From NCBI GenBank assembly GCA_964361785.1, contig CAYIBX010000002.1, forward strand, positions 21,160 through 85,159: DNA of 64,000 bases. The letters run 5' to 3'. Below, piece by piece: positions 40,961-61,924 of the stretch. A program made the translations under genes and the position numbers. Origin of the DNA: an uncultured Gammaproteobacteria bacterium (GTDB lineage Bacteria > Patescibacteriota > Microgenomatia > UBA10105 > UBA927). The notes below the pieces were generated by a model. That model ran no database searches. It saw only the letters and a program-made list of their open reading frames with translations, and was not told the DNA's origin. Position 1 is the stretch's first letter. The number at the start of each line of letters is the position of its first letter.

Positions 40961-41203
40961 TCATTTTGGTTTGAATTGAGCCATGAATGTATGAATATCT
41001 TTTTTTGTACGTAATACTGTTCCTCGTCCCGCTTTATAATCTGCTTTTGCCTCAGCTACCATGCGATCGAGTTTGTGATCACGAAGAATCTGACGTAATG
41101 CAGTACGAGCTAGATCGCTAAACGACGCATAGTGCCCATCTGCAATAGCTGCATCAGCTTCTTTTTTGAGAACGTCTGGAAGAGAAATGTTTATAGTAGT
41201 CAT
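40961..41203 (-). CDS. Ribbon-helix-helix (ParD/CopG-like) antitoxin. The probable start is the internal Met (MTTINISLPDVL...); the track ORF extends to 41221
   Basis: A beta-strand followed by a helix, INISLPDVLKKEADAAIADGHYASFSDLARTALRQIL, typical of RHH antitoxins. It is an 80-86 aa protein immediately upstream (3 nt gap) of the RelE-like toxin. Confidence 0.55.
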   Translation of the reverse strand: MTTINISLPDVLKKEADAAIADGHYASFSDLARTALRQILRDHKLDRMVAEAKADYKAGRGTVLRTKKDIHTFMAQFKPK

Positions 41204-43436
41204 ATGTATGAATAATAGCAAAAGTCATACAAAGTGTCAAAGAGACGAAAAGAAGAAGTTTTTTAAGCATCGAAGGCTCGTAGGAAAAAACGATCTCTTG
41301 TGTGCCGGCTGATTCTAACTTTACTGCAGTGTAGAAAGGGAAAACGATAAGCGTTTCCGCGGATTTCCCATCAATCGTTGCCTTCCAAGACGGGTGATAG
41401 GTCTGGTGGAGAATGACGAGGCACTCGGAACAGCCTTCTTTAGCCTCGACAGTGGCGCGGAAGACCATATCGCTATCTTGCGACTGGGAGGTTATTTTCA
41501 TTAGGTCACCTAAGTTACCTAGGGGGCTTAGGTAAAGAGGGGGCTCAGAAAAAAGATTGTGCCGAGTACCATCAGGAATTTGATACGTCACCTCGTCTAT
41601 CATTCGAAAATTTGGGAGTCCAGTGTTTTTGGGATAGTCTTTATCAAAAGTGAGTTTTGGGTATAAGCCTTTGGTATGTGTGTCTGATTGGATCCATAGG
41701 CGGACGACGTTGGTAAAATTTTGTTTGGAGCTGGAGATGATGGCTGGACGAATGCCTGTGGAGATATACCCATACGATAGGTTACCTATGTTGCCTAGGT
41801 GACTTGGGTCGCCTACATCAACAGTGTAAAGACGCCACGTTTTTCCGGTCATCAGAGGCTTCCAGAAGGGTTGGATGTTATCTTTGGGTAAATCGATAGG
41901 TGTCACGACATATTTTATATTGTAGAGGCGATAGTGGGCAGCTACATCTTCAGAAAAATACTGTTCGGTATCTGAATTTGGAGACCACGTTTCTGGAAGC
42001 CATGTAAGCGTCGGGATGCCAAAGGTAGACATATAAAGATACATTGGTGTTTCTGCTACGCGAAAATCTTTGCCCCACCCACCACCGCGACCAAAGTAAA
42101 CACGACTGGGATTAGTTTGTAGTTTATCGTTGATGGTTGAGAGTAAGAGAGAAGTATCGGCGTCAACGTTGGTAAAATTGTCGTTGGCTTGTTTGATAAG
42201 CGTATCGTTGTAGCTGCTGTATCGCAATGTTTGGGGGTAGACCGAAAAGATAAGAGATAAGACCAACAAGACACATAGGACTGATAAGACCAATTTGTTT
42301 AGTAATGTTGTTTTTTCAAAAATCCAATCAATTCCTATTGGGATTAAGAATAGCCCTGTGATATGGAGGCCCACGATAAAACGGGAAAGATGAAACTCTT
42401 CCATGCTGGGGATAAGGTTTACCAGTCCCCCCCATGTCGTACGGCCAAAGTAGAAAAGAAGCCAGAAGACAAACAAAATGCCAAATGCAAAATGCTGAAT
42501 GCTAAATAATGCAACAAATATGCCGACGAATACGAGAAGTGTTAGAATGGGGAAGCGGCTGAAATCAAATAGGTCGCCGTTAAAAAGATTTTTAAGCACT
42601 TCCCGATAGCCGTAGGAGTCAAATTTCCATATCGGATCCCAGACTGATATGTTGTGATAGTTGCTCCCAAGAAGAATAGGGATAATCCAGTATCCCAGAA
42701 GCAGTAAGACGCCGCCGTAAATAATAGGAAGTTTTTTTAGATGTTTGAATCCGACGATAGCAATACTAAAAAACGCTATGATTCCGATTCCCAGATGTCC
42801 TGTTGTCGTGAGGGCAAGGGTGAGTATTGCAGGCTTTATTTTTCCACGAAATGCATACGCTATTGCCAAAGGCAACCAAATCATAGCAAAAAGTTGACTC
42901 GAGAGGCCATATCCACGCCACAGAAATGATGCAGGATCTAATCCATATAACCCATCTGTGGAAAGATGGGACGCGATGAGCGCGCCGATACCTGCAGAAA
43001 TCCAAGAGAGTCCGATGATACGAAGTGCAACAAAAAGAGATAAAGGGAAAAGACAAAGCAAGAGATAGATCACGTAGTGATAATATTGAAAGAGCGATCC
43101 AAAGTGAAAAATGCGCCATGATGCGACTATGGTTATTTGGGGAAGGTGTGAGTAATAGTAGGGGAGGTTATAACCTTGTGCCCAGTTGGGGACCCAGTGG
43201 TCTGTTAAGTAAGAGAGTGAACAGAAAATAGTAAATAGTGAATGTGGACAGGTTTTGTTTGCAAAGTCCCATATTTGGTTTGTCCTATAAACGAGAGCGT
43301 ATTGAAACGTATTGTCATTTGGATCTAGTTTGGCTGTGGGCTCCTGTCGATATGTCCATAGGTTAAACCCAATGGCAAAAAGAACCATAATAATGCCAAT
43401 AAGTCTCATTAGTTTTATGTGTCCAATAGGTCTCAT
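41154..43436 (-). CDS. Large polytopic membrane protein with a C-terminal extracytoplasmic domain (GT-C-type / YfhO-like putative glycosyltransferase). Possible starts are 43496, 43436 or 43409
   Basis: Many hydrophobic helices in the N-terminal 420 aa are followed by a roughly 350 aa soluble domain. The N-terminus, MRPIGHIKLMRLIGII, is itself built from the 9-bp repeat family. Starting at 43436 leaves a 4 nt gap to the upstream gene stop at 43441. Confidence 0.45.
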   Translation of the reverse strand: MRPIGHIKLMRLIGIIMVLFAIGFNLWTYRQEPTAKLDPNDNTFQYALVYRTNQIWDFANKTCPHSLFTIFCSLSYLTDHWVPNWAQGYNLPYYYSHLPQITIVASWRIFHFGSLFQYYHYVIYLLLCLFPLSLFVALRIIGLSWISAGIGALIASHLSTDGLYGLDPASFLWRGYGLSSQLFAMIWLPLAIAYAFRGKIKPAILTLALTTTGHLGIGIIAFFSIAIVGFKHLKKLPIIYGGVLLLLGYWIIPILLGSNYHNISVWDPIWKFDSYGYREVLKNLFNGDLFDFSRFPILTLLVFVGIFVALFSIQHFAFGILFVFWLLFYFGRTTWGGLVNLIPSMEEFHLSRFIVGLHITGLFLIPIGIDWIFEKTTLLNKLVLSVLCVLLVLSLIFSVYPQTLRYSSYNDTLIKQANDNFTNVDADTSLLLSTINDKLQTNPSRVYFGRGGGWGKDFRVAETPMYLYMSTFGIPTLTWLPETWSPNSDTEQYFSEDVAAHYRLYNIKYVVTPIDLPKDNIQPFWKPLMTGKTWRLYTVDVGDPSHLGNIGNLSYGYISTGIRPAIISSSKQNFTNVVRLWIQSDTHTKGLYPKLTFDKDYPKNTGLPNFRMIDEVTYQIPDGTRHNLFSEPPLYLSPLGNLGDLMKITSQSQDSDMVFRATVEAKEGCSECLVILHQTYHPSWKATIDGKSAETLIVFPFYTAVKLESAGTQEIVFSYEPSMLKKLLLFVSLTLCMTFAIIHTYDYYKHFSSRRSQKRS
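41501..41537. repeat. In-frame 9-bp-periodic repeat copy (TTAGGTCACC TAAGTTACC TAGGGGGC TTAGGTAAAG) inside CDS 41154..43436
   Basis: Tandem degenerate 9-mers of the TAGGTNNCC / TAAGTNNCC type, read directly from the sequence. They encode ...SPLGNLGDLMK... on the minus strand. Confidence 0.5.
41777..41816. repeat. In-frame 9-bp-periodic repeat copy (ATAGGTTACC TATGTTGCC TAGGTGACT TGGGTCGCC TAC) inside CDS 41154..43436
   Basis: Four consecutive 9-mers matching TAGGTNNCC. They encode ...HLGNIGNLSYG.... Confidence 0.5.
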
Positions 43437-43440
43437 ATGA
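43395..43440. repeat. Repeat-derived sequence (CCAATAAGTCTCAT ... CCAATAGGTCTCATATG) that forms the N-terminal codons of CDS 41154..43436 (MRPIGHIKLMRLIGI)
   Basis: Two direct copies of CCAATARGTCTCAT. The ATAAGTCT / ATAGGTCT cores match the family seen elsewhere in the window. Confidence 0.4.
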
Positions 43441-45276
43441 TTATGGAAACAGTTTTGGATTGAGCCAATCCGTATGGTCATCAGTATTGCCGTCACCAGC
43501 GTCGGTCGTTTTCAGGGTAAGATTGGTTATCCCCGACACGTTGACACTCGTATGTTTCGGCAAATCAAACCGTCCCATTTTTTTTGACTGAAAAAGAAGT
43601 TTGTCATCCCCATAAATTTCAAAAATTGCCGATGCTTTGGTGCCTGATTCAGTGTCTATGCCGAAATCCGTTTCAAAGCGGGTAAAATTTTTGTTGATAT
43701 TGTATGTATATTTTGAAGGAGCATGCGAGCCCAAACCAGTGTTATAAAATGCATATTGTACGGATAATCGCGTCCAGCTATTTGGTCCTCCAAACGAGCT
43801 TTGGACCGTGCGATTAGTTTGTCTGGTGCCGTAGCTTTGTTCACTTACATACGGCGTGAGTGAGTTTAACGAAATAGGTTTTTTTGTGAATAACGGCAGG
43901 TTAAGAAAGATTAGCCCTCCTGTTATTATACTAACTGATAACAGTAAACAGTTAACCGTTAACCGTGAAGATTTGATGAGTGTGAAAAGAAAGACTCCAA
44001 AGAGCCCAAGAAGAACAAACGATGTGGTGATCGTGAAAATTGGCCCAGTAAGAAGGGACAGAAAGGGAATACCATTATTGGGATAGTTGACCACAAGCGC
44101 GGTATGTAGGTTGTAGAAATACAATACGGTAAATATTGAATAAAAGATAATAAAAAGTTTTTTATTGCGTATAAATGGTGCCCAAAGGAGGAGAAAGACA
44201 GAGAGCGGGAACGCGTAGCGGTCGTGGGATTGCGTTTGGAAAAGAAAAAAGCTCGCGTTTATGATGATGATGCCTTCAAGAAAGGTTTTTAATAGGACTA
44301 ATTTGTCTAATTTGACTGATAAGGCTAATTGGCGTATTACCGCGAATAAATAGAAACAAGAAAATAGTAGGAGCCCGACGGTTTTCGCATTCACCATACC
44401 GATGACGCTTAATTTATCTGAAGTCGCCATGCCTTTGGCCCCTGTGACGATCCACCAGAGGTTATACGCGTTTAAACTCATCCACGGGAAGTAATCGTAA
44501 TTTTCGGTAAGGGATGCAAAAATACGATCAGCATTTTTGGTAAGAATAAATTCGATGTTTAATCCGACAAAGCTTGTGAGAGCGCCGGCAATTGTTTGAA
44601 TTAAAAATTTGAAACCGCCATATTGGAACGCAAAAAGAAAAAAGAGGGGCGCATAAATCATGTTTTGCAGTTTCGTCATCATAGAAAGCATGAAGATGAG
44701 ACCTGCGACAAAGGACCAACGTTTCAGTAACGCAAGGAACGCGAGTAAGAAAATAAAAAGTCCCACACTATCCACCTGTCCCCATACAGCTCCATCGATG
44801 ATTGAAATGGGGTTTAGTAAATATCCAATACTCAATACCCAATATCCAATGGAGGGCACGGTGGGAAACCCTAGTTCTTTTGTATTCTTTCCTATATAGA
44901 GAATAATCCCTGCGATACCTATGTCAGCGAGTATGGGAAAGAGTTTGCTAATGGTAAGAAACAGAAGATTGGTATTTTTCCAGAAATCATTAAATATGTG
45001 GGGATCTTTAAAGAAGCTGTATAGTTTGACCATCGCTCCTAAGCTATACGCAAACGGCGTAGGGTAGTTATTATTCGTTGCCTTCATGCCCTCCACAATC
45101 CCTTTGTCGTATGTGGCTAGCCCCCATGATTTCCAAAACGAAATATCCGCTTCAAAGCCAGGGTTGGGGATGAGGGCTAAGCGAATGATTATCGCGAGAA
45201 CAAAGAGTAAACTGTAAATTGTTAACTGTTTCTTATCGCGCATGATTCTATCATACGAAATATGGTGCGCCTCCAC
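43441..45276 (-). CDS. GT-C fold membrane glycosyltransferase-like protein (PMT/ArnT-like) with a C-terminal NPCBM-like carbohydrate-binding domain
   Basis: A polytopic N-terminal region carries a first-loop acidic motif (PGFEADISFWKSWG). The C-terminal approximately 110 aa (FEIYGDDKLLFQ...VSGITNLTLKTTDAGDGNTDDHTDWLNPKLF) resembles NPCBM / F5-8-type lectin modules (D..DW.nP.L). Confidence 0.45.
   Translation of the reverse strand: MEAHHISYDRIMRDKKQLTIYSLLFVLAIIIRLALIPNPGFEADISFWKSWGLATYDKGIVEGMKATNNNYPTPFAYSLGAMVKLYSFFKDPHIFNDFWKNTNLLFLTISKLFPILADIGIAGIILYIGKNTKELGFPTVPSIGYWVLSIGYLLNPISIIDGAVWGQVDSVGLFIFLLAFLALLKRWSFVAGLIFMLSMMTKLQNMIYAPLFFLFAFQYGGFKFLIQTIAGALTSFVGLNIEFILTKNADRIFASLTENYDYFPWMSLNAYNLWWIVTGAKGMATSDKLSVIGMVNAKTVGLLLFSCFYLFAVIRQLALSVKLDKLVLLKTFLEGIIIINASFFLFQTQSHDRYAFPLSVFLLLWAPFIRNKKLFIIFYSIFTVLYFYNLHTALVVNYPNNGIPFLSLLTGPIFTITTSFVLLGLFGVFLFTLIKSSRLTVNCLLLSVSIITGGLIFLNLPLFTKKPISLNSLTPYVSEQSYGTRQTNRTVQSSFGGPNSWTRLSVQYAFYNTGLGSHAPSKYTYNINKNFTRFETDFGIDTESGTKASAIFEIYGDDKLLFQSKKMGRFDLPKHTSVNVSGITNLTLKTTDAGDGNTDDHTDWLNPKLFP
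44821..44850. repeat. Unrelated in-frame short direct repeat (ATATCCAATACTCAATACCCAATATCCAATGG) inside CDS 43441..45276, encoding SIGYWVLSIGYLLN
   Basis: Direct CCAATAYYCAATA repeats seen in the sequence. The peptide repeat SIGY(W/L)(V/L)L is visible in the translation. Confidence 0.4.
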
Positions 45277-48419: not shown

Positions 48420-48980
48420 TTATTCTTTTGGTGCTTCCCAGAACTTTTTTCCTGCCGCGTCCCATGGTAATCGGTGCTCGTCAGGCTGAGCCTGATTAAA
48501 TTGATTGTTCACAAAGTAATACACATTTGCTTTTTTACCAGAGAAATTTGTTGCCCCATGCGCTACGCCGCGGGGGATATAAACAGCTATTGAATTGCCC
48601 CCGCCTAACGGAATTTTTTGAAGAACACCTTTTGTGAGAGAACCTTCGCGTACGTCCCAGAGACCCAACAGGAGATGTTCATCAGGAGGTACGTACCAGA
48701 TTTCGTCTTGTTTGTAATGAAGATGCCATGCTTTGACGGCTTTGTTGTATTGTTTACTTCTATTGATTTGGCGTACATGAAACCCTTTGATAAGTTCGGA
48801 TTCTCCCGATTCAGTTAATCGTAAGAGTTCAGAAAAGTCGCCATTCTCGCCGATGTAGTTGCGGATTTTTAACATTTGGACACCATTAATTGTCGGTTTT
48901 GGTGAATAATCCTGCTCGTATATGTTCTCTTTAAGATTTGTATCTATTGCATCGTTTGAGAGAATGCTCATGTAAAGCAT
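48420..48980 (-). CDS. rfbC: dTDP-4-dehydrorhamnose 3,5-epimerase-like cupin (RmlC/RfbC family)
   Basis: Catalytic-region motifs HLHYKQDEIWYV...LWDVREGSLTKG...IPRGVAHGATNF...YYFVNNQFN...DEHRLPWD match the RmlC pattern (His-dyad, IP.G.AHGF, Y..d..Y..e.E....dD). Confidence 0.65.
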   Translation of the reverse strand: MLYMSILSNDAIDTNLKENIYEQDYSPKPTINGVQMLKIRNYIGENGDFSELLRLTESGESELIKGFHVRQINRSKQYNKAVKAWHLHYKQDEIWYVPPDEHLLLGLWDVREGSLTKGVLQKIPLGGGNSIAVYIPRGVAHGATNFSGKKANVYYFVNNQFNQAQPDEHRLPWDAAGKKFWEAPKE

Positions 48981-49024
48981 TATCCCAATTGCGCACCTTT
49001 AAAGTCAACTCCCATACAGATAGA

Positions 49025-50662
49025 ATGAGAACTATGGTAAGAACATACATATGGAGTGTGTTGATTGTAGGGTTTTTGTTTTTTTCTCTGTCGTCGACGT
49101 TTTATGAATTGAAGCGATCAGGGGATTTGCAGCCGGATCGTCAGTTTGAACTCGTACATAATTTCCCAACGGATTATAATTTTTATCTTTCGCGCATTCG
49201 TGAAGGGTTAGAAGGCAACTGGACGAGTGTAGAGCGCTATACTTCAGAGTCCCACAGCGGGTCGTTTATTCACGAAATGTATATTCTGATGGGTCACGTG
49301 GGGACGTGGGTAAGGGTGCCGTGGCATAGGGCTGGGGATATTTATCATGTGGCACGGGTGGTTCTTTCCTTTACCTTGTTGGCGCTTATTGCAGAGTTTT
49401 GTAAGGAAAGTTTGGGAGGTAAGAGATATTGGGGCGTTTTGGGATTTATGTTGGCAGTGACTGCCTCATCATGGTCAAAGCTTGTATATGTAGACGGGGT
49501 AGCCAGATTTGGTGGCTACATGCCGTGGTGGTCTGTCATGGATAGTTTGCAGCGAATTACCTTTATCCCACATCTTTTGGCAGGACAGGCGCTTATCGTT
49601 TTTCTTATTATGACGCTTGCGACCAACAAGTTACTAAGATCCGGCAATAGTATCTTTTTGGGAATTTTGGCGTTTGTATTAGGGTTAGTGTTTCCGCCCG
49701 GACTTCTCTTTGTATATTGTGTGATGGGAGTGTATGCATTATTTCAAGGCAAGGGTATGTGGAAATTAGTCACACCATATATACTTGTTTTTCTTATTAG
49801 TGTGCCCTCTCTTGTGTATTTAGGGCTTATGACTCAGGTTTATCCGTGGAAGCGGTTAGTGGAGGTAGATACTATACGGCCGTTGCCTTTTGACTATATA
49901 GAATACGCAAAAGCTATAGGGCCTATGGGCCCCATAGGACTCATAGGACTTATATGGGCGCTTTTTCGGAAAGAAAAAGCTATGTATCCGGTAGTCGCGT
50001 GGGTGATTTCGTGGATAAGCCTCCTTTTCGTATTTAAGTTTGTCCCTGCGCAGAGTCCTTTGCGATTTTCTGAAATGATCCCGCATATTCCTCTAGGGAT
50101 TTTGAGTGCGTATTTATGTTATCAGATAGGTCACTTAGGTCGCCTAAGCTACCTAAGTAGCTTAATGAAGACAATGCCGATGGTCCTAATAGCTTTTGGG
50201 CTTTTCCATATGTATTCTTCGTTTCTTTGGCAGAAAGACTTCATAGATCATAAAATACGCGCTACGACTCCTCTGGTGCCTACAGGAAGTTATGTGATGT
50301 ACCCTTTAAAAGATTTCATCGCGGCCATAGTATTTATCCAAGATTCGACTTTAAGAGATGCTATCATTCTTTCAGAATCAACTGCAGGAAATTATATTCC
50401 TGTGTATAGCGGCAATCGTGTTTATTTGGGGCATGATAATACGGTCCGCTTTGAGTCAAAAAAAGAAGAAGCGAAGCAATTTTTTTCAGGTATTATGTCA
50501 GTCTCACAAGCGAAAGTCTGGCTTAACGAAAAGGGGATTTCGCGTGTATATTATGGCCCGCAAGAACAAGAAGATGCAGGGTTTAAAGACCTGAGCACTA
50601 AATACCCATTTTTAATCAATCGATACACTAATCCTCATGTGACGGTCTATTCTATGGAATAA
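49025..50662 (+). CDS. Polytopic membrane protein, paralog of 46111..47637 and 56446..58056 (putative GT-C-type glycosyltransferase). The track ORF starts at 48938 but overlaps the divergent rfbC-like gene
   Basis: The shared N-terminal motif is present (VHNFPTDYNFYLSRIREGLEGNWTSVERYTSE), along with many hydrophobic helices. It contains two in-frame copies of the 9-bp-periodic repeat (49922-49954 and 50126-50167). Confidence 0.5.
   Translation: MRTMVRTYIWSVLIVGFLFFSLSSTFYELKRSGDLQPDRQFELVHNFPTDYNFYLSRIREGLEGNWTSVERYTSESHSGSFIHEMYILMGHVGTWVRVPWHRAGDIYHVARVVLSFTLLALIAEFCKESLGGKRYWGVLGFMLAVTASSWSKLVYVDGVARFGGYMPWWSVMDSLQRITFIPHLLAGQALIVFLIMTLATNKLLRSGNSIFLGILAFVLGLVFPPGLLFVYCVMGVYALFQGKGMWKLVTPYILVFLISVPSLVYLGLMTQVYPWKRLVEVDTIRPLPFDYIEYAKAIGPMGPIGLIGLIWALFRKEKAMYPVVAWVISWISLLFVFKFVPAQSPLRFSEMIPHIPLGILSAYLCYQIGHLGRLSYLSSLMKTMPMVLIAFGLFHMYSSFLWQKDFIDHKIRATTPLVPTGSYVMYPLKDFIAAIVFIQDSTLRDAIILSESTAGNYIPVYSGNRVYLGHDNTVRFESKKEEAKQFFSGIMSVSQAKVWLNEKGISRVYYGPQEQEDAGFKDLSTKYPFLINRYTNPHVTVYSME
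49922..49954. repeat. In-frame palindromic repeat copy (CCTATGG-gcc-CCATAGG ACTCATAGGACTTATA) inside CDS 49025..50662, encoding IGPMGPIGLIGLI
   Basis: A 7-bp inverted repeat plus ATAGGACTY direct units, read directly from the sequence. Confidence 0.5.
50126..50167. repeat. In-frame 9-bp-periodic repeat copy (ATAGGTCAC TTAGGTCGCC TAAGCTACC TAAGTAGC TTAATG) inside CDS 49025..50662, encoding IGHLGRLSYLSSLM
   Basis: Consecutive 9-mers of TAGGTNNCC / TAAGNNNCC type. It contains the inner palindrome AAGCTAC-ctaa-GTAGCTT. Confidence 0.5.
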
Positions 50663-51417: not shown

Positions 51418-53435
51418 TAAAACACCGCGTTTTTATACTGGCAATCGTTGGATACTGTATCCTTGTTGGTCTTGTATTTGGCCGAGCGCTCACTCCATCT
51501 TACGGCATGATGATTTTTGGCGATGACATACACAGGCAATATTATTTTTACCGAGAGTTTTTTAATCATTGGATTTCACAGGGCGTCTTTCCATGGTGGA
51601 ATCCGTATCTATTCGGCGGAGAGCCATTCATCGCAAATCCTGTGGTAAATATATGGTATCCGCCGAATTGGTTGTTTTCTCTGTTGCCTCTAAACGTTGC
51701 ATATTCGTGGCATGTAGCACTTCACGTGTTTTGGGCGTGCCTTGGAATGTATCTCTTATTAATTCAAATTGGTCCGATAGGTCTTATACGGCCAATAAGA
51801 CCTATAAGCGCATTTGTAGGAGGATGTATTTTTGGATTGTCTGGATTTTTTATGGCGAGGACGTTTGCAGGACACGTGGATGTGATTGCTGCCGCAAGTT
51901 TTATGCCGTGGGTTGTGGGAGCGTTTTGGAGGCTTATTTCATTACCATTGATCAAATTACAGCGGCCGCAGAGTTTTGGTCAAGAGGGTGTGATAGCTAC
52001 ACTAGTATTTGCATTACAGCTTTTGGCAGGGTATCAGACGATGGCGTTTTTTACGGTCATAGCAGTTGGAATCATTGCGCTGATTTATGCAATACAGATA
52101 AAGAGTCTTATTCCTTTATTACGAGCGTGTCTGGCTGGTGCGTTGGGTGTCGCTCTTTCCGCTATACAAATTCTTCCGGCAGCAGAGTTTTTTGGGCGTA
52201 GTATCCGTACCTTTGAGTTTCCCTACAGTTGGCATTCGTATGGGTCGCTTGAGTGGAAAAGTTTATTACAATTTATTAATCCTTTTCAGTTTGGCAATCA
52301 GTATACGTACACTGGCCCGCCGCCAAATTTTATAGAACACAGTGCATTTTTGGGAGTAGGGGGGTTGATGCTGGCGATGATAGGAATCATAAGTCTGATA
52401 AGACATATGAGACCGATAAGGGGAGTATTTTTTGTGATTGCTTTTTTTGGTCTCTGGGTTTCGTTAGGACCAAACGCACCGATTGATTTACAGAAAATTC
52501 TTTGGCAATTTGTGCCGATGTATCACTATCTTCGGATTCCTCCTCGGCATCTTATTCTGGTCGTGTTTGGATTGGCTGGACTTGCGGGGATTGGATTTGA
52601 TAGGTTGCCTAAGTCACCTAGGGTACTTAGGTCACTTATAGTAGGAGTGATTGTGGCGGAAATGGTGGTGTTTGCACGAAATTTTATTGAACTTAAACCT
52701 ATTCCGGAAACGCGTCATGACAAAGAACTTATCGCATTGTTAAAAAAAGACACGCAGCCATATCGATTGCTGCAAAATTTTGGCGCATGGCTTCCTCAGC
52801 GTGACGGTTTAGATTTTGACGGTGTTATGGCGTATGGCATACATTCAGCGACAGGTTATGATCCGTCGATACTTCGGACTTATTACGAATTTATAGCTCT
52901 TGCTTCCGGCAAAAGTGGAGAGACAGCGGTACTTAATGCTGATGTTCAGGTGCCATATCTTTCCGCAAGTTCTGCAAGTGCTATTGATATGTTAAATATT
53001 AAATACCTTATGGTGCCCATTGCCTACGATCCATTCGCAAATAACAGTCGATACATACTGCGACGTGAAGACAAAAAACAAGAGTATCGACTTTACGAAA
53101 ATACGACCGTTTTTCCACGCTTTTATTACGCCCAAAAAGAGTGCGGCACGGCAAACGTGACCTCATATACACCCAATAGAATTGAATTAACCGTCGCATC
53201 TACGTGTGACGATACACTGCTTAGTTCTGAAAACTGGTATCTCGGATGGCACGCGACTATAGATGGGGAAGAAGTCACTATTGGTAAGCTGAATAATACT
53301 TTTCGAACACTTTTTGTTTTGAAAGGAAGGCATACAATTATTTTTGAATATAAGCCGATTATTTTTCTGTGGGGCGCTCTGATAAGTAGTATTGCGATAC
53401 TGTCGCTTGTATTTTTTTCACTCCGTAGACTGTGA
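51414..53435 (+). CDS. YfhO-like polytopic membrane protein (putative GT-C glycosyltransferase)
   Basis: N-terminal signature FGDDIHRQYYFYREFFNHWISQGVFPWWNPYLFGGEPFIANP is typical of the YfhO family. About 14 hydrophobic helices are followed by a C-terminal soluble domain and a final TM. The start ATG at 51414 overlaps the upstream stop in an ATGA arrangement (51414-51417), suggesting translational coupling. It contains three in-frame repeat copies. Confidence 0.55.
   Translation: MIKHRVFILAIVGYCILVGLVFGRALTPSYGMMIFGDDIHRQYYFYREFFNHWISQGVFPWWNPYLFGGEPFIANPVVNIWYPPNWLFSLLPLNVAYSWHVALHVFWACLGMYLLLIQIGPIGLIRPIRPISAFVGGCIFGLSGFFMARTFAGHVDVIAAASFMPWVVGAFWRLISLPLIKLQRPQSFGQEGVIATLVFALQLLAGYQTMAFFTVIAVGIIALIYAIQIKSLIPLLRACLAGALGVALSAIQILPAAEFFGRSIRTFEFPYSWHSYGSLEWKSLLQFINPFQFGNQYTYTGPPPNFIEHSAFLGVGGLMLAMIGIISLIRHMRPIRGVFFVIAFFGLWVSLGPNAPIDLQKILWQFVPMYHYLRIPPRHLILVVFGLAGLAGIGFDRLPKSPRVLRSLIVGVIVAEMVVFARNFIELKPIPETRHDKELIALLKKDTQPYRLLQNFGAWLPQRDGLDFDGVMAYGIHSATGYDPSILRTYYEFIALASGKSGETAVLNADVQVPYLSASSASAIDMLNIKYLMVPIAYDPFANNSRYILRREDKKQEYRLYENTTVFPRFYYAQKECGTANVTSYTPNRIELTVASTCDDTLLSSENWYLGWHATIDGEEVTIGKLNNTFRTLFVLKGRHTIIFEYKPIIFLWGALISSIAILSLVFFSLRRL
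51775..51807. repeat. In-frame palindromic repeat copy (ATAGGTCTTAT-acggcca-ATAAGACCTAT) inside CDS 51414..53435, encoding IGPIGLIRPIRPI
   Basis: A perfect 11-bp inverted repeat with a 7-bp spacer, total 33 bp (a multiple of 3), with no stop in the frame used. Confidence 0.55.
52380..52421. repeat. Degenerate in-frame repeat copy (ATAGGAATC ATAAGTCTG ATAAGACAT ATGAGACCG ATAAGG) inside CDS 51414..53435, encoding IGIISLIRHMRPIRG
   Basis: Five consecutive ATARGNNNN 9-mers sharing the ATAAGAC / ATAGG cores of the family. Confidence 0.45.
52599..52641. repeat. In-frame 9-bp-periodic repeat copy (GATAGGTTGCC TAAGTCACC TAGGGTAC TTAGGTCAC TTATAG) inside CDS 51414..53435, encoding DRLPKSPRVLRSLI
   Basis: TAAGTCACC / TTAGGTCAC units identical to those in the 41501 and 61721 copies. 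Confidence 0.5.
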
Positions 53436-54775: not shown

Positions 54776-56404
54776 TTACCAATATTTTATAATGCAGGGG
54801 TCCTCACCCTTCCACCACGGCGTTTGGCGAGGTGTTTTATTATCCGTTCGGTTATCAAAGATCCAAACAAGTGGCGCGTTTTGTACTGTGATTGTTTTTG
54901 TCGGTGTGTGATGTAACAGGTATTCGTATGCATACGCAAAACGATAAAAGAATGATTGACGATTAAGAAGGATGACATAGTCTGAATCGTCGTACCCATA
55001 CGTATTGAGATTAGTCAGTAAATCTGGTCGCAAATATCGAGCGGCTACATCTGCTGCCATGACAATGTGTACTGTTGCGTTTATTGGGGCGTGATCGTTT
55101 ATCCATTCGACTGCATGTTTTTGTGATCCGCCCCAATAGTCGAGATCATACTTGCCAAAAGCCCCCTTGACGCCACCGACGAGCTCATTAAAGTAGGTAA
55201 TTTGAAATGGGTGATAAGAGTAAAGAGTAAAGAGAAAAGAGAAAAGAGTAGAAAAAATAAGAATAGGACCAATAAGACGAATTGGTCTTATATGATGTAT
55301 TTGTCGTATGACAACATCAAATCCTATTGCGGCGATTGCTGAAAGCGGGAAAAGCACTTCTTCAAAATGTCTGATGCCGTCAATAACCCCGATGTGGGGC
55401 AATAGATAGCGGGAAAGAGGGAGGAAGAGCCAGAGAAACAAAAGAATACCAATAGGTCTTATATGTCTTATAAGACCAATAAGTCCTATAAGGAATAATA
55501 ATAAAATTGGAATCGGCGTGGTGATACCTAAATACCAAAATGGGTAATACCATGGAACATTTGTTCCTGAGCAGTACCAAGTGCCGTTGAGAAGCACTTC
55601 TATGTTATTGGTGCCTATGGCAAACGTGCGGTAGGCGTGATCTAGCTGTGCGATAGGATTAGGCCAGAAAAACCACCAGAGAAGAAAAGCGGCAACGGGA
55701 GAGAGAAAGAAGTACCATAGCAAAGGCGTAGAGAAGCGTAGTAGGTTTCGTAGTTTAGTAAAAGAAAAATTTAAAAACAAGAGCCACGCTGCAAAAATTA
55801 CAGGGATAAAAATACTGTTAATTTTGACATTGAACGCCACGGCAAACCCCAGTGCCGCTAAAAGGAGGTCAGAGAGTCGTTTATATCTTACAAGTCGCCA
55901 TAATAGCCATATGTTGATCGCAAAAATAGCAGCTGAAGGCACATCTTTCATATTGTTATGCAGGTCGCTAAAAAATCGAGGCATGACACTTAAAAAGAAT
56001 GCAGCAAAGAGAGCGACACGTTTGTTTATCGCTTTCTTTAACAATCCATATAACGCGAGTATTCCTCCAATTCCCCAAAGAATGATGGGAAGATGGTATG
56101 CGCTATCTTGCGGGAGTATTTGTAAGAATTTATAGAGAAAAAGATAAGAGGCGACCGGAGGGATAGACATAAGCGGACCGTATGGCAAGCTCCACGCGTT
56201 TCTAGGATCCGGCTCAACGTACGGCAATATTCTTGGTTCTAGTTGTTGCCAAGAAAGCCCTAAGAGTTTTCCACCGCCGAAAAGGTGAAAGTGGAAGTCC
56301 CACGTGAGGCCATAGTCATTGATGATAAAAATGTGAACAGCAATAAGAACTGTAAAAATAACGAGAGCAGTATGCTTAGATATCCAGCGAGTAATTATAT
56401 TCAT
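54776..56404 (-). CDS. GT-C fold polytopic membrane protein (ArnT/PMT-like)
   Basis: The first-loop acidic/aromatic motif DYGLTWDFHFHLFGG is followed by more than 10 hydrophobic helices. It carries two in-frame repeat copies (55262-55295 and 55450-55491) and a purine-rich low-complexity stretch at 55200-55260. Confidence 0.5.
   Translation of the reverse strand: MNIITRWISKHTALVIFTVLIAVHIFIINDYGLTWDFHFHLFGGGKLLGLSWQQLEPRILPYVEPDPRNAWSLPYGPLMSIPPVASYLFLYKFLQILPQDSAYHLPIILWGIGGILALYGLLKKAINKRVALFAAFFLSVMPRFFSDLHNNMKDVPSAAIFAINIWLLWRLVRYKRLSDLLLAALGFAVAFNVKINSIFIPVIFAAWLLFLNFSFTKLRNLLRFSTPLLWYFFLSPVAAFLLWWFFWPNPIAQLDHAYRTFAIGTNNIEVLLNGTWYCSGTNVPWYYPFWYLGITTPIPILLLFLIGLIGLIRHIRPIGILLFLWLFLPLSRYLLPHIGVIDGIRHFEEVLFPLSAIAAIGFDVVIRQIHHIRPIRLIGPILIFSTLFSFLFTLYSYHPFQITYFNELVGGVKGAFGKYDLDYWGGSQKHAVEWINDHAPINATVHIVMAADVAARYLRPDLLTNLNTYGYDDSDYVILLNRQSFFYRFAYAYEYLLHHTPTKTITVQNAPLVWIFDNRTDNKTPRQTPWWKGEDPCIIKYW
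55262..55295. repeat. In-frame palindromic repeat copy (AATAGGACC AATAAGAC-gaattg-GTCTTATATG) inside CDS 54776..56404
   Basis: A 7-bp inverted repeat ATAAGAC / GTCTTAT flanked by an ATAGGACC unit. Confidence 0.45.
55450..55491. repeat. In-frame palindromic repeat copy (ATAGGTCTTAT ATGTCTTATAAGACC AATAAGTCCTATAAGG) inside CDS 54776..56404, encoding LIGLIRHIRPIGI on the minus strand
   Basis: Contains the 12-bp perfect palindrome GTCTTATAAGAC, the ATAGGTCTTAT arm and the ATAAGTCCTAT arm. Confidence 0.55.
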
Positions 56405-58056: not shown

Positions 58057-58105
58057 AGGGACATTGTATGCAATTTTTTTGTATCATGACAGTATGGGAG
58101 AACAG

Positions 58106-59611
58106 ATGAGAACAAAGTTTCTTGAAAGGGTGGCCATGTTTGTTAGCCTTTTGGTTCTTGGTGCGTTGTTGTGGTATACGCTCCAGTTGGGATTAGTGCG
58201 ATACTTTGACGCGGATGAATTGGCATATCTTCACTGGGCGCACAACGTATTTATAGGAGAGCGGCCGTATTATGACTTTTTTTCTTACGTGCCCAGTGGT
58301 TTTATGTATGTTTTGGCTCCACTTTTTTTGTTTGTCAAAGGTGCAGAAATTTTGACTCTAGCACGATGGTTTGCATTTTTGGTAGAGCTTGGGATGGTTA
58401 TATGTCTTATAGTGATCTATAAAAATTGGCGCGGATCCTTTTTTGGGATAGTAGCCGCGATAGTTTTTTTGTTTCTCCCAATTCCTCAAGACAAATTGAT
58501 AGAAGTACGACCTGATAATCTGGCGATGCTTATTGGGCTTATGGGGCTTATAAGTCAAATAAGACTTATAGAATTTCAAAAACAACGGAGTGCGTTTTGG
58601 GCGGGATTGTTTTATGGATTGTCCCTTATTATTCTTCCAAAGACCTTGCCGCACGTTGTCTTTGCGGCAGCCATAACATTGTTGTGGTGGCGTGAGGATT
58701 GGAAAAATCGCTGGGTGTATGTACGTGAGTTTATTGTGGGCGGTATAACGCCGGTTGTTGTATTTGTGCTGTTTCAACTGGTCACTGCAAAAAGTATGGC
58801 CGAGCTTAGTACGCTTCTTTATTCACTGACAAAGCTCCCCTTTGAAGTAAATAGAATTGCAGAACAGTTTTTCATGCAACCAGATTTATTTTTTTATCCT
58901 AATAGTATCTATTATGGCGTAGGGGGCGTACATGCAGGGCTTATCGCAAATCATGCTCTTTGGCTTCTGGGACTCCTGTTTGGCGTGTATAGATTGTTTA
59001 CCCCATTTGTGCCCAATGGGAAAAAGGGGATGTTTACAGAACTTCTTCTCTCCGGATCATTCTTTATTTACGTGGCAACGTTTATACTCTGGTATCCTAT
59101 GCGGCACGCGCAGTACCTTATCCCCATTGCGCTTTTTGTGTCCCTCTACGTTGCGGACGGGATAGAACAGGCATGGAAAAAAGCGAAAACGCATACAGTA
59201 TACAAAGGAGTTTTTTGGGCATTCAGTGTTGTGAGCATAGTGTTTGGTTGGCAAATTTACCTCACGGTAACCATGCCAAAAATGGCCATGACAAACAGAG
59301 AAGACATGCGTGTCATTTACCAGAGTCAACACATGATACCAAAGGAAAGTTATGTGTTGGATTTTGTAGGATCAACGATATATTTTCGTGATCCGTATTA
59401 TGTCAGTGCGCTTCCGTTTGGACAGTACCCTTCATATCTTTCGCGACCATTGCCAACACTAAGCCGTATTCTTTCTCACACAAATACCCCGTATATCTAT
59501 GAAGGGAGATTGGATCGTATGCAGACGTTGTCCATAGAGGACCAAGTGTATATTCGTATGCATTATATTCCTTTAGAAGCTACACACTTTTGGAAAGCGA
59601 AAGGATTATAG
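58106..59611 (+). CDS. GT39/GT83-like (ArnT/PMT family) membrane glycosyltransferase. The track ORF begins at 58064, but the start at 58106 is supported by a Shine-Dalgarno-like sequence
   Basis: The DE-loop motif FDADELAYLHWAHNV is typical of PMT/ArnT-type GT-C enzymes. GGGAG at 58096-58100 sits 5 nt upstream of the ATG at 58106. A start at 58064 would lie only 7 nt from the divergent gene start at 58056. It contains an in-frame repeat at 58529-58571. Confidence 0.55.
   Translation: MRTKFLERVAMFVSLLVLGALLWYTLQLGLVRYFDADELAYLHWAHNVFIGERPYYDFFSYVPSGFMYVLAPLFLFVKGAEILTLARWFAFLVELGMVICLIVIYKNWRGSFFGIVAAIVFLFLPIPQDKLIEVRPDNLAMLIGLMGLISQIRLIEFQKQRSAFWAGLFYGLSLIILPKTLPHVVFAAAITLLWWREDWKNRWVYVREFIVGGITPVVVFVLFQLVTAKSMAELSTLLYSLTKLPFEVNRIAEQFFMQPDLFFYPNSIYYGVGGVHAGLIANHALWLLGLLFGVYRLFTPFVPNGKKGMFTELLLSGSFFIYVATFILWYPMRHAQYLIPIALFVSLYVADGIEQAWKKAKTHTVYKGVFWAFSVVSIVFGWQIYLTVTMPKMAMTNREDMRVIYQSQHMIPKESYVLDFVGSTIYFRDPYYVSALPFGQYPSYLSRPLPTLSRILSHTNTPYIYEGRLDRMQTLSIEDQVYIRMHYIPLEATHFWKAKGL
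58529..58571. repeat. In-frame repeat copy (CTTATTGGGCTTATGGGGCTTATAAGTC-aaat-AAGACTTATAG) inside CDS 58106..59611, encoding LIGLMGLISQIRLI
   Basis: Direct GGGCTTATG units plus the inverted repeat ATAAGTC / GACTTAT. Confidence 0.5.
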
Positions 59612-59654: not shown

Positions 59655-60371
59655 ATGACTACTCAACCGATTGCATTCTCTCTTATACTTCCCTGCTATA
59701 ACGAACAGAGGCTGATTAAGGAGAGTACAGAGAGAATTATGAGCGCACTAGATGCCGGCGCGTTTACATACGAGATTATTTTCGTGGATGATAAAAGTTT
59801 TGACAAAACAGCACAGTACATAAAAAAAATCTGTAAACGATATTCGTTTTGTCGCGCTGTATTTCACGAGACGAATATGGGACGCGGGAGATCGGTCATG
59901 GATGGGATCGCGAAAGCACGGGCCGAAATAGTAGGGTATATAGATATAGATTGTGAAGTGTCTCCTGTGTATTTGCCATTTATGGTCTCTCTCGTTACAG
60001 AAAAAAAGAGCGATGTGGTTATCGGAAAGCGTTTTTATCGTTCTACCTTAGGATCAATAATGAGGGAAGTGTTTAGTCGCGGGTATCGCTGGCTAGCAGA
60101 CACCATGGTAGAGACGGGAGGAGTAGATACAGAGTCAGGATTTAAGGTGTTTCGAAAGAAAAAAATTGTACCCATTTTTGAATCTATAGAGCATCAGGGA
60201 TGGTTTTGGGATACAGAAATTATGGTGTATGCCAAACGGGCGGGATTAAAAATATCAGAAGTGCCGGTACTTTTCCTTCGCCGGTTTGATAAACATTCAT
60301 CCGTCAATATAGTCAAAGATACAGTAGAATATCTTATACAGCTTATTCGGTTTTCTAGGTCGCTTAAGTAA
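59655..60371 (+). CDS. GT2 polyprenol-phosphate glycosyltransferase (DPM1/GtrB/ArnC-like)
   Basis: FSLILPCYNE, EIIFVDDKSFDKT, GRGRSVMDGIAKA and GYIDIDCEV correspond to the GT-A DxD and acceptor-loop motifs of Dpm1/GtrB-type enzymes. Such enzymes make the lipid-linked sugar donors used by GT-C enzymes. Confidence 0.75.
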   Translation: MTTQPIAFSLILPCYNEQRLIKESTERIMSALDAGAFTYEIIFVDDKSFDKTAQYIKKICKRYSFCRAVFHETNMGRGRSVMDGIAKARAEIVGYIDIDCEVSPVYLPFMVSLVTEKKSDVVIGKRFYRSTLGSIMREVFSRGYRWLADTMVETGGVDTESGFKVFRKKKIVPIFESIEHQGWFWDTEIMVYAKRAGLKISEVPVLFLRRFDKHSSVNIVKDTVEYLIQLIRFSRSLK

Positions 60372-60395
60372 CCTAGGTAGCCTAAGCGACCTATA
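60356..60395. repeat. Palindromic repeat copy spanning the stop codon of the GT2 gene and the whole intergenic spacer up to the start of the acetyltransferase gene (CTAGGTCGCTTAAG-taacctaggtagc-CTAAGCGACCTAT)
   Basis: A 12-bp inverted repeat AGGTCGCTTAAG / CTAAGCGACCT with one mismatch, and an inner CCTAGG palindrome. The TAA stop at 60369-60371 lies inside the element. The last six codons of the GT2 protein (RFSRSLK) are element-encoded. Confidence 0.55.
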
Positions 60396-60928
60396 TGAAA
60401 GCATTACAAACAATAGGTATTTGGCAGGCTTTGCGTTTTGTATGGTTTCAGTGGTATGGATTTCTCATCCACGTTTCTTTGCCGCCAGTACGTGTGTGGC
60501 TATTGCGATGGGCAGGAGCGACGGTGGGGAAGGATACTGTGATTATGGATGTACGGTTTGTCAATATCCATCAACACGGGTTTTCTCGACTTTCTATTGG
60601 GAACAGATGTTTTATAGGAGATGAGGCGATGCTTGATGTGAGAGGCGGTATACGCCTAGAGGATGATGTAACTATTTCAAATAGAGCGTCTATCGTGACG
60701 CATATAAACGTGGGGTTTCCTGACCATCCGTTGCAAAAAATGTATCCGATGAAGGAATCACATGTTTTGGTAAAAAAAGGTGCGTATGTAGCAACCGGAG
60801 TGATTGTATTGCCAAATGTTTCGATAGGGAAAGAGAGTGTGGTGGCAGCAGGGGCCGTCGTCACAAAATCAGTTTCTGATCATGTATTGGTAGCTGGTGT
60901 GCCGGCGGTGGTGAAGAAAAAGTTATAA
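60395..60928 (+). CDS. Left-handed beta-helix (hexapeptide repeat) acyl/acetyltransferase
   Basis: The C-terminal hexapeptide repeats VTISNRASIVTH...GAYVATGVIVLPNVSIGKESVVAAGAVVTKSV...LVAGVPAVV are typical of sugar O- or N-acetyltransferases (WbbJ/PglD/NeuD-like). Confidence 0.7.
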   Translation: MKALQTIGIWQALRFVWFQWYGFLIHVSLPPVRVWLLRWAGATVGKDTVIMDVRFVNIHQHGFSRLSIGNRCFIGDEAMLDVRGGIRLEDDVTISNRASIVTHINVGFPDHPLQKMYPMKESHVLVKKGAYVATGVIVLPNVSIGKESVVAAGAVVTKSVSDHVLVAGVPAVVKKKL

Positions 60929-60967: not shown

Positions 60968-61924
60968 ATGAAACCATATTTGTCTGTCATTATTCCCTAT
61001 TATAATTCTCCAGAAAAGTTGGAGAGACTTCTTCTATCAATTGCGAAAAGTAAAAAGGCGCTGCCATATGAAATTATTATTGTCGATGACGGCTCAATAG
61101 AAAAATTTAAAACAAAACTAAAAATTATTCGACTTCCTCATAATAAAGGTCCGGCAATTGCAAGAAATAGAGGGGTAGAAGCGGCAAAGGGAGAGTTTGT
61201 CGTGTTTTTGGATGGTGATGTAGAGGTGTTTGCCGATACCCTTTGTGAGATCGGCAAAGTATTTACTGATGACCCTGATGTGGTGGCTCTAACCGGCGTA
61301 TGGGTGAAGGAGCAACAGTCCAAAGATTTTTTCCCCAACTTTAAAGCGCTTCGGGATTGGAGTTACTGGATAAACGAGCGGGATAAAAGTGGGTATTATT
61401 TTCTTTTCTCTACGCGCATTGCAGCGATTAAAAAGGCGGTGTTTTTGCGTTTGGGTGGGTTTGATGAGACGTATCCAGCTCCACTAGTAGAAGATATAGA
61501 GCTCACGTATAGAATTGCGCGTCGATACGCAATAATTTTTGCGCCACAAGTGCGGGTTCGGCATGAATTCGAGAGTTTCTGGCCGATAGCAAAGAAATAT
61601 TTCTTACGAGCATACTACTGGACTAAGCTGTATACGAAGCGTAAAAAATTTGATCCGGTCGCTACCACGCTTGCTGAGGCCTTAACGACTCTATCTGGTG
61701 TAGGGGTAGTCCTTGTGTTTATAGGTTATCTAAGTCACCTAAGATACCTAGGTTACCTATGGGCGGTAGTGTTGGTGTTCCACATCCTCCTCGTGCGGAA
61801 ATTTTTGGTCTTTGTCTATCACGAAAAAGGATTGGTATTTATGCTCAAAAGTTTTGTGATCGGACTTTTTCTTTACTGTTTTATCTTTTCAGGCGTTTTG
61901 ATGGGGAAAATCAAGAGCCGTTAG
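60968..61924 (+). CDS. GT2 family glycosyltransferase with a C-terminal membrane segment
   Basis: LSVIIPYYNSPEKLERLLLSI, YEIIIVDDGS, LPHNKGPAIARNRGVEAAKGEFVVFLDGDV. Two hydrophobic helices at the C-terminus contain a 9-bp-periodic repeat copy (61721-61762). Confidence 0.75.
   Translation: MKPYLSVIIPYYNSPEKLERLLLSIAKSKKALPYEIIIVDDGSIEKFKTKLKIIRLPHNKGPAIARNRGVEAAKGEFVVFLDGDVEVFADTLCEIGKVFTDDPDVVALTGVWVKEQQSKDFFPNFKALRDWSYWINERDKSGYYFLFSTRIAAIKKAVFLRLGGFDETYPAPLVEDIELTYRIARRYAIIFAPQVRVRHEFESFWPIAKKYFLRAYYWTKLYTKRKKFDPVATTLAEALTTLSGVGVVLVFIGYLSHLRYLGYLWAVVLVFHILLVRKFLVFVYHEKGLVFMLKSFVIGLFLYCFIFSGVLMGKIKSR
61721..61762. repeat. In-frame 9-bp-periodic repeat copy (ATAGGTTATC TAAGTCACC TAAGATACC TAGGTTACC TATGG) inside CDS 60968..61924, encoding IGYLSHLRYLGYLW
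   Basis: Four consecutive TARGNNACC 9-mers. The outer ATAGGTTA ... TTACCTAT arms are near-inverted. Confidence 0.5.

Follow-up and report, generated by a model that had tools for sequence, protein, structure and literature searches.

A self-complementary array of nonamers at a glycosyltransferase/acetyltransferase gene junction of a Patescibacteria genome and its relatives in membrane-protein genes

Introduction

Small repeats which overlap the ends of genes are well known, and the remodelling of a single gene junction by such a repeat is an ordinary event that would be unremarkable alone. In the current study, we describe a 40-nucleotide (nt) array of palindromic nonamers at the junction between a GT2 glycosyltransferase gene and a hexapeptide-repeat acetyltransferase gene, located in a 64,000-nt stretch of contig CAYIBX010000002.1 (hereafter the window) from a member of the Patescibacteria, or candidate phyla radiation (CPR). 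The architecture and distribution of the repeat family are unusual and apparently undescribed: its arrays are periodic and self-complementary at once, they have been gained repeatedly at one ancient ATGA stop/start overlap, and they are spread over intercistronic spacers (one of them in a ribosomal-protein operon) as well as turns between the transmembrane (TM) segments of surface-glycosylation enzymes. No description of 9-nt palindromic arrays in CPR was found in the literature, as represented by a limited collection.

Mycobacterial interspersed repetitive units (MIRUs) are short repeats that fill intercistronic operon spacers with their ends overlapping the flanking stop and start codons (PMC12548453, PMC3184786), and they are thought to ‘insert themselves at start codons’, preserving translational coupling (PMC12548453). 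The array resembles them in its position between a stop codon and an ATG, in its repeated gain at ATGA and in the in-frame ATGA at its 3′ end. MIRUs are direct, mycobacterial repeats of about 40–100 bp with a small internal open reading frame (ORF) coupled at −4 nt, whereas the array is set apart by description as 40 nt of palindromic 9-mers with mostly intragenic copies in a different host phylum; no ATG, GTG or TTG that could open an internal ORF is present in the GT2 frame between the TAA at 60369 and the ATG at 60395. By analogy, the array would work most like a MIRU devoid of the internal ORF.

Repetitive extragenic palindromic (REP) sequences and bacterial interspersed mosaic elements are imperfect palindromes of 20–40 bp that are dispersed in many copies at gene ends. 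With its 40 nt and its stem of 12 pairs the array agrees with REPs in size and palindromy, but it lacks the GTAG/CGTC tag at its ends ((A/C)TAGG...CCTAT), the only GTAG being in the loop; furthermore, 12 of the 13 arrays of the window are inside ORFs rather than extragenic, and 9-nt tandem periodicity is foreign to REPs. REPs go with RAYT transposases of the IS200/IS605-like type, and no such enzyme is known for the arrays. Integron attC sites possess R″/L″...L′/R′ cores (RYYYAAC...GTTRRRY) and measure 57–141 bp, and the 40-nt array has no GTTRRRY core. Rickettsia palindromic elements (RPEs) are discrete insertions of about 100–150 bp. These are likewise palindromic repeats tolerated in frame within genes, and some of them extend 3′ ends (PMC3184786), whereas the arrays are about 40 nt long and comparison with orthologs does not show several of them to be clean indels. 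Palindromic amphipathic repeat coding elements (PARCELs) are tandem coding repeats with DNA dyad symmetry which are enriched in membrane-targeted proteins, although their units encode 25 residues (75 nt) and form long tracts in proteins whose function is unknown (PMC2996958), as opposed to the 9-nt units (3 residues), numbering 4–5 per array and occurring also between genes, that are described here. The tandem repeats of Borgs are similar in that they arise independently in spacers and ORFs, keep the frame and occur preferentially in extracellular or membrane proteins and at conserved hotspots (PMC9879509), but they are perfect, direct and A-rich and form disordered regions, while the arrays are degenerate, palindromic and located at inter-TM turns.

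Results

Architecture and folding of the junction array

The array reads C-TAGG-TCG-CTTAAG-TAA-CCTAGG-TAG-CCTAAG-CGA-CCTAT, and is composed of 4–5 tandem copies of a degenerate 9-nt unit, CYTARG+NNN, as opposed to being a plain palindrome. Within the unit, a palindromic hexamer core (CYTARG) precedes three bases that vary, and in the other phase the unit is a 9-bp palindrome, ARGTNACYT; tandem units that are themselves palindromic render the array both 9-nt periodic and self-complementary. The features of the junction are as follows.

59655–60371, + strand: GT2 glycosyltransferase gene, upstream cistron, 238 aa, PF00535 (ORF and Pfam analysis)
60355–60394, + strand: nonamer-palindrome array, 40 nt (sequence, inverted-repeat, fold and spacing tests)
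60356–60368, + strand: left hairpin arm, GT2 codons S-R-S-L-K (TCT AGG TCG CTT AAG), A60367 bulged
60369–60371, + strand: GT2 stop codon TAA, at the 5′ edge of the loop, formed by the spacer triplet of the first unit in reverse orientation
60382–60393, + strand: right hairpin arm CTAAGCGACCTA, wholly intergenic
60395–60398, + strand: ATGA, of which ATG is the acetyltransferase start and the overlapping TGA (60396–98) is in the GT2 frame
60395–60928, + strand: hexapeptide-repeat acetyltransferase gene, downstream cistron, 177 aa (ORF and Pfam analysis)

The GT2 ORF ends in ...RFSRSLK-TAA, while the acetyltransferase start at 60395 is backed by an N-terminus, MKALQTIG, that is conserved in orthologs. 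An initial annotation of this DNA had reported a palindrome at the junction; its end, the stop codon at 60369–71 and the ATG at 60395 were confirmed, while its start was moved by one base, from 60356 to 60355. The palindrome itself is real: the left arm TAGGTCGCTTA at 60356–60366 has its exact reverse complement at 60383–60393, giving perfect arms of 11 bp, and an inverted-repeat search returned six matches with at most one mismatch where 0.62 were expected, a number that none of 100 shuffles reached. Bulging of A60367 permits G60368 to pair with C60382, thereby extending the stem to 12 pairs, of which five are G-C in an otherwise A/U-rich stem with a single bulge. The RNA of 60345–60405 folds at −24.3 kcal/mol as compared to −11.3 ± 2.6 for shuffled sequences (z = −5.05; 0/200), the antisense RNA of the junction copy at −22.6 kcal/mol, and DNA-parameter folds gave −10.8 and −11.2 (z about −3.5). 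In the hairpin, positions −13 to −2 ahead of the acetyltransferase AUG are paired. The 9-nt periodicity runs 23 nt beyond the GT2 stop, where there is no peptide constraint. The TGA at 60396–98 may be a relic of an ancestral stop/start overlap, albeit a weak one, as it would be met by chance in one of three cases and the in-frame ATGA is not conserved in two array-bearing relatives (L007 and L005; loci and contigs used for comparison are designated by L numbers).

The ancestral junction and the GT2 tail

The 3′ end of the GT2 gene and the junction were read in 80 genome loci and eight metagenome contigs. In array-free orthologs the GT2 stop overlaps the next start as ATGA (GTGA in L044), a configuration observed in L011, L012, L014–16, L018, L022–23, L038, L040, L044, L045, L048, L070 and L072. 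The outgroups among them (L044, L045, L048, L070 and L072) were assigned to the Acidobacteriota, Planctomycetales and Omnitrophota, L044 being from the Acidobacteriota and L048 from the Omnitrophota; the nearest array-free ortholog, L011, is 73% identical, originates from the same aquifer and also displays the ATGA overlap. Since the overlap is thus present in array-free orthologs and outgroups alike, it is ancestral, and the TAA stop and 23-nt spacer of the window are derived. The proposals that the repeat contains the stop codon and the complete spacer, and that the element remodelled the junction, are both upheld by this comparison.

The same cannot be said for the further proposal that the element provided the C-terminal tail of the GT2 protein. 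Array-free tails (...KFRRKLYS, ...KFRKRLHL, ...RFRKQLASRI) are of the same F.R.L character as the window tail RFSRSLK, which retains F, R at +2 (an AGG codon, as in L011) and L at +4, and which is one residue shorter than the tail of L011. Repeat-free orthologs with the same C-terminal residues and spacer had been named as the observation that would count against remodelling, and this is nearly what was found for the tail, though not for the spacer. The element provides the tail in the sense that its codons now conform to the repeat, but not in the sense of new residues. The left hairpin arm is thus recruited or retained ancestral coding sequence, and the protein terminus was barely remodelled.

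In the frame of the junction, forward units read Leu-Lys/Arg-Ser and spacer triplets of the sequence TAA or TGA act as stop codons, the first of which terminates the ORF in all eight array junctions examined (TAA in the window, L007, L008, L035, L211 and L021; TGA in L005 and L212). The number of forward units read before this stop sets the length of the tail: SRSLK in the window, SKSLKSPKYLR in L005, SQSLKSLKLLK in L212 and SQLLKSPRSPKSPR in L021. Read-through of extra units in these relatives adds about 6–9 residues (+SPKYLR in L005, SLKSLKLLK in L212, SPRSPKSPR in L021). The arrays explain variable C-termini, as well as 3-residue loop indels, in the annotation of array-bearing gene families.

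Recurrent acquisition at one junction

On the GT2 tree, array-bearing junctions (the window, L005, L007, L008/L211, L021, L212 and L035, with a second flavour of array in L009/L010) are interleaved with overlap junctions, from which it follows that arrays were acquired several times at one junction. The clade of the window, recovered in 60 of 60 bootstraps, holds four junction states: L011 has the ATGA overlap, the window, L005 and L007 carry the junction-type array, L009/L010 carry the second flavour, and L209/L210 have a tandem duplication that is unrelated to the arrays. L009 and L010 retain an L011-type ...KLY tail ahead of their array, implying that the common ancestor had the overlap. 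Elsewhere, the array of L035 is nested among the array-free L019 and L036 (58/60 bootstraps), and L211 and L008 form another array clade (49/60).

The duplication in L209 (1368–1437) and L210 (2266–2296) consists of tandem units of AAATGACAAATCTAC that include the ATGA overlap, resulting in a spacer of 70 nt in L209. The GT2/acetyltransferase junction is a hotspot for short duplications in general.

Related arrays in membrane-protein genes of the window

At least 13 arrays are present between 41 and 62 kb of the window, and every one except the junction copy sits in frame in a gene for a multi-pass membrane protein; these include PMT_2, YfhO-like and a second GT2 gene (in its C-terminal membrane part) among others. 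Most intragenic arrays are located at the turn between two hydrophobic segments. Runs of at least three TARG motifs at 9-nt spacing number seven in the window where 0.07 were expected, and self-identity at a lag of 9 is exceptional relative to lags of 3, 6, 12, 15 and 18, which substantiates the initial labelling of the junction sequence as a repeat element. Two flavours are discernible, one of the form ...CCTAGGTNA... (six copies including the junction copy) and one of the form ...GTCTTATAAGAC... (about seven copies); repeat grouping likewise clusters the junction copy with those at 41489, 41774, 50123, 52597 and 61718. The window copies end in CTAGG/ATAGG and CCTAT.

41489–41540: junction-flavour copy, ORF 41154–43496 (−)
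41774–41816: junction-flavour copy, ORF 41154–43496 (−)
42248–42298: 9-nt periodic array, ORF 41154–43496 (−)
44283–44333: 9-nt periodic array, ORF 43441–45276 (−)
49907–49960: 9-nt periodic array, ORF 48938–50662 (IGPMGPIGLIGLI)
50123–50165: junction-flavour copy, in frame, ORF 48938–50662 (IGHLGRLSYLSSL)
51756–51808: second-flavour array, YfhO-like gene (IGPIGLIRPIRPIS)
52367–52426: second-flavour array, YfhO-like gene
52597–52639: junction-flavour copy, in frame, YfhO-like gene (DRLPKSPRVLRSLI)
55236–55309: second-flavour array, same PMT_2 gene as the array at 55434
55434–55501: second-flavour array of the ATAGGTCTTAT...ATAAGACCTAT type, PMT_2 gene loop (LIGLIGLIRHIRPIG)
58525–58572: second-flavour array, ORF 58064–59611 (LIGLMGLISQIRLIE), no indel relative to orthologs
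61718–61760: junction-flavour copy, in frame, second GT2 gene (IGYLSHLRYLGYL), hypervariable inter-TM loop

The intragenic arrays are read in three combinations of frame and orientation (I/L-G/S/R-x, L-K/R-x and x-L-x), so that no single peptide motif explains them; the arrays are open in four of the six reading frames. As a control, 500 synonymous recodings were generated with the cluster's own codon usage. The fold of three intragenic copies of the junction flavour was matched by only 1–2 of 500 recodings, and lag-9 identity exceeded the recodings at p<0.05 in 11 of the 13 arrays. In addition, the arrays are rich in rare codons, namely CTA (8–10% of Leu), AGG (6–8% of Arg) and AAG (22–30% of Lys). 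Taken together, the excess over the recodings and the rare codons indicate that the array pattern is constrained, or generated, at the nucleotide level, and a peptide-driven origin was rejected on the basis of the three frame and orientation combinations and the recodings. A sharply defined unit was also dropped: the exact consensus 9-mer CYTARGTYR occurs six times in the window where 5.2 are expected, although all six matches are within arrays. A function as DNA uptake sequence was dismissed on the grounds that the arrays are clustered rather than evenly spread, being absent both from the 13,468-aa ORF that fills the first 40 kb and from the 8.6 kb that follow the last array.

The hypervariable loop of the second GT2 gene harbours one flavour in some lineages and the other flavour in others, while distant orthologs have a longer, non-periodic loop. 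A population variant (L002) differs from the window at three of 14,346 compared positions (50602, 50630 and 52612), the last of which falls inside the YfhO-like gene array at 52597–52648.

Arrays in other contigs

A degenerate-pattern scan of metagenome contigs yielded at least 120 matches, most of which are ordinary 9-nt tandem repeats of other organisms. Among the matches listed, about 25 are of the TARG-array type, several of them from other Hainich wells; contigs without given taxonomy are referred to as CPR-like on the basis of sequence and gene context. The stop/start geometry of a MIRU, which is present at the window junction, recurs in this set: among the matches listed, a long upstream ORF stops between −14 and +37 of the array start in 17 of 22 tabulated junction arrays, and 18 of the 22 have an identified downstream start, in 17 cases an ATG 0–10 nt after the array. 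Junctions filled in this manner include rplB-rpsS (L154), a pair of M16 peptidase genes (L185) and a sugar kinase/epimerase pair (L179), whereas other metagenome copies are in frame in membrane proteins such as DUF6580. L154 is a contig that uses Shine-Dalgarno (SD) sequences, and several genes neighbouring rpsS have GGAGG, yet rpsS has no upstream GGAGG and carries the array (7071–7110, in the rplB-rpsS spacer) instead. Other spacers of this operon contain heptamer repeats (CACTTTT x3, GAAATTA x4) just 5′ of SD sequences.

In L143 (2998–3620), arrays flank on both sides a 185-aa ORF that weakly matches the 23S rRNA intervening-sequence protein family and itself contains a third array, which constitutes a cassette-like arrangement. 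A scan of viral contigs with (YTARGTNAY)x3 returned 63 matches, nearly all of them perfect coding tandem repeats of AT-rich viruses; few (L215/L224, L263, L264) resemble the arrays of the window.

Discussion

Our preferred reading, which we hold with middling confidence, is that the junction array acts as an intercistronic repeat of the MIRU or REP kind, with a hairpin that links translation of the downstream cistron to that of the upstream one. The array was acquired secondarily at the ancient 4-nt ATGA overlap of the GT2 and acetyltransferase genes, in the frame in which forward units read Leu-Lys/Arg-Ser, such that the GT2 ORF came to end at the first TAA/TGA triplet and the remainder of the array became the 23-nt spacer, while the leftmost unit re-uses ancestral tail codons and the basic R..L tail is retained. 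In the polycistronic mRNA the array is predicted to form a hairpin (about −22 to −24 kcal/mol) that holds the GT2 stop at the 5′ edge of the loop and buries positions −13 to −2 before the acetyltransferase AUG. Free 30S subunits would presumably initiate poorly at this AUG, and translation of the acetyltransferase would mostly depend on ribosomes that melt the hairpin as they finish GT2; coupling of this RNA-unfolding type is an established model (PMC12548453). We infer that the ratio of downstream to upstream translation would probably be lower than with the ancestral overlap. Almost nothing is known regarding translation initiation or operon regulation in CPR/Patescibacteria, and if the arrays act on translation they would offer a handle on the coupling of cistrons in these SD-poor genomes.

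A number of observations weigh against this reading. Coupling is reported to be negatively correlated with structure that lies just past the upstream stop, and added spacing of less than 20 nt can lower it (PMC12548453), so the array may simply weaken coupling and be an ‘attenuator’ in the translational sense. Among the 21 junction arrays that were folded, 12 favour the sense and eight the antisense strand, and with folding thus equal on both strands there is no indication that the arrays act at the RNA rather than the DNA level; a strand asymmetry due to G-U pairs was discarded as uninformative on these counts and on the −24.3 versus −22.6 kcal/mol of the window copy. Junction hairpins are weak in some relatives (−5.7 in L009, −8.3 in L021 and −11.9 in L008). 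Family copies are only about 60–80% alike, the exact 9-mer is not enriched window-wide, no target-site duplication or transposase was seen at the arrays, and the failure of several intragenic arrays to be clean indels relative to orthologs weakens the view of a mobile element. A role that is null, selfish or mutational is a serious rival. Mimicry of an SD sequence by the AGGTGA of reversed units was rejected, as this motif is 11–22 nt from the ATG, which is too far.

The most substantial alternative, tentative but plausible, is that the array is a neutral by-product of a local mutational process that built it in place, namely slippage by 9 nt (three codons) together with either an inverted duplication of the GT2 3′ end or template switching there, and that it is functionless, persisting as it is harmless in the frame of the junction. 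At the same junction, L033 possesses a perfect 14-bp hairpin made from its own ancestral-type tail codons (FRKRLNLA) that is not 9-periodic, and the unrelated duplication of L209/L210 includes the AAATGA junction. The PMT_2 loop (55434–55501; L032) has been expanded in two distant lineages from the same ancestral I-G-L...R-P seed with differing units (CTTATAAGA in the window, CTAATTAGA in L032), both having 8-nt palindromic cores, and L154 has its heptamers in other spacers. Borg repeats are a precedent for independent formation in place within genes and spacers (PMC9879509). The ancestral AGG and Leu kept by the left arm, the divergence of the copies, the lack of visible target-site duplications the array of ORF 58064–59611, which is not an indel, and the occupation of one loop of the second GT2 gene by different flavours in different lineages fit the same explanation. 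On the other side, the TARG phase is common to six window loci that are also alike in unit composition and in length (about 40 nt), and many metagenomic contigs have arrays of the junction flavour at unrelated loci; arbitrary local seeds would not produce this, which speaks for an element that is dispersed or insertional. Synonymous recodings moreover fall short of the arrays in both hairpin stability and lag-9 identity. L010 compared to L011 resembles a discrete insertion of about 35 nt between a Tyr codon and TCATGA, without a clear target-site duplication, and recurrent gains at one site, as described for MIRUs, point in the same direction. Miniature inverted-repeat transposable elements (MITEs) have terminal inverted repeats within a target-site duplication and empty sites in relatives; at the array, the inverted ends (TAGG...CCTA) and the TA on either side of them are part of the unit itself, L010 and L011 resemble a filled and an empty site, and other sites are not clean indels. 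Pfam searches of the window and L001, covering about 71 kb of the genome, gave no transposase domain. Insertion and growth in place are each supported by parts of the evidence. Should the arrays prove to be mutational footprints, they would report an unusual repair or replication bias in reduced genomes.

Other explanations were given less weight. One that we regard as speculative is that TARG-nonamer arrays are a CPR-wide undescribed system with a dedicated trans-acting partner, either an oligomeric RNA/DNA-binding regulator or a nuclease/transposase that cuts with a 9-bp stagger, the arrays being built up from the footprints of repair, and that they shape operon junctions and membrane-glycosyltransferase loops, replacing stop/start overlaps and SD regions even in the rplB-rpsS spacer. 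The narrower proposition that the arrays are binding sites of a sequence-specific oligomeric protein, with the junction copy as a translational or transcriptional operator, seems unlikely. TRAP and HutP read (G/U)AG repeats and MetJ binds met-boxes as a dimer array, and by comparison an RNA-binding protein might read UAG/UAA-G triplets at fixed spacing or an array of DNA-binding dimers might occupy the palindromic boxes: the invariant feature is TARG at exactly 9-nt spacing and not any peptide, diverse contigs share the motif but differ in their spacer bases, and arrays sit directly on translation start regions. However, no candidate binding factor was identified, most window copies are deep inside ORFs where an operator makes little sense, and dyad symmetry places the TARG periodicity on both strands, leaving no strand preference visible. 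The initial annotation had suggested an intra-operon terminator or attenuator, or a site of RNase processing or 3′-end stabilisation, which we consider improbable even though a stable hairpin does separate the two cistrons. The stem is A/U-rich and bulged, and its 12 pairs are short for RNase III, which prefers about two helical turns. The stem is followed by TATGAAAGC rather than a U-tract; 60355–60400 lacks the G+C-rich stem and U-tract of an intrinsic terminator and received no call in a consensus terminator scan, the acetyltransferase ATG comes directly after the stem, the two genes are co-transcribed and remain tightly linked in different phyla, and Rfam gave no match at or above gathering score in the whole window. 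REP-type hairpins have for their part been hypothesised to act in transcription termination and mRNA stabilisation (PMC3733652). Lastly, it is highly improbable that the palindrome and its periodicity arose by chance or as a by-product of codon usage combined with a basic tail rich in Leu: the tail codons AGG/CTT/AAG do by themselves yield one CYTARG-like unit, and the exact consensus is not enriched, but the shuffles, the TARG runs, the synonymous recodings, the periodicity past the stop and the use of codons that are rare in the genome together led to its rejection.

Flanking genes and other features of the window

The GT2 protein of the window is identical to one encoded on contigs from the Hainich aquifer (well H43), and its nearest named relatives are from Gottesmanbacteria, Woesebacteria and Patescibacteria metagenome-assembled genomes. 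The GT2-acetyltransferase pair is syntenic in most related loci, and conservation of the pair with its 4-nt start/stop overlap extends from CPR as far as Acidobacteriota and Omnitrophota. A hydrophobic N-terminal extension is present in the acetyltransferase (MKALQTIGIWQALRFVWFQWYGFLIHV...; 60395–60520 and orthologs), and the extension and the conserved overlap suggest that the two genes encode a tightly co-expressed, membrane-associated pair. No SD motifs were found upstream of the genes of the window. Beyond its 3′ end, after the glycosylation cluster, L001 (14309–20717) encodes a Fic domain protein, AbiEii and three AAA_14/DUF4143 ATPases, and this region contains no 9-nt arrays.

The first 40 kb of the window are taken up by a single-frame ORF of 13,468 aa (210–40616, + strand), for which a Pfam scan of two segments of roughly 5,000 aa returned only a SecA_DEAD-like helicase domain at about 27.0–28.0 kb. 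This ORF has a separate 9-nt periodic stretch at 37559–37605 (TTTGCAAAATGTTCAAAATTTGCAAGATATGCAGGATAT) that is not of the TARG type, as well as internal paralogous segments about 1.85 kb apart (29670/31512 and 35934/37809).

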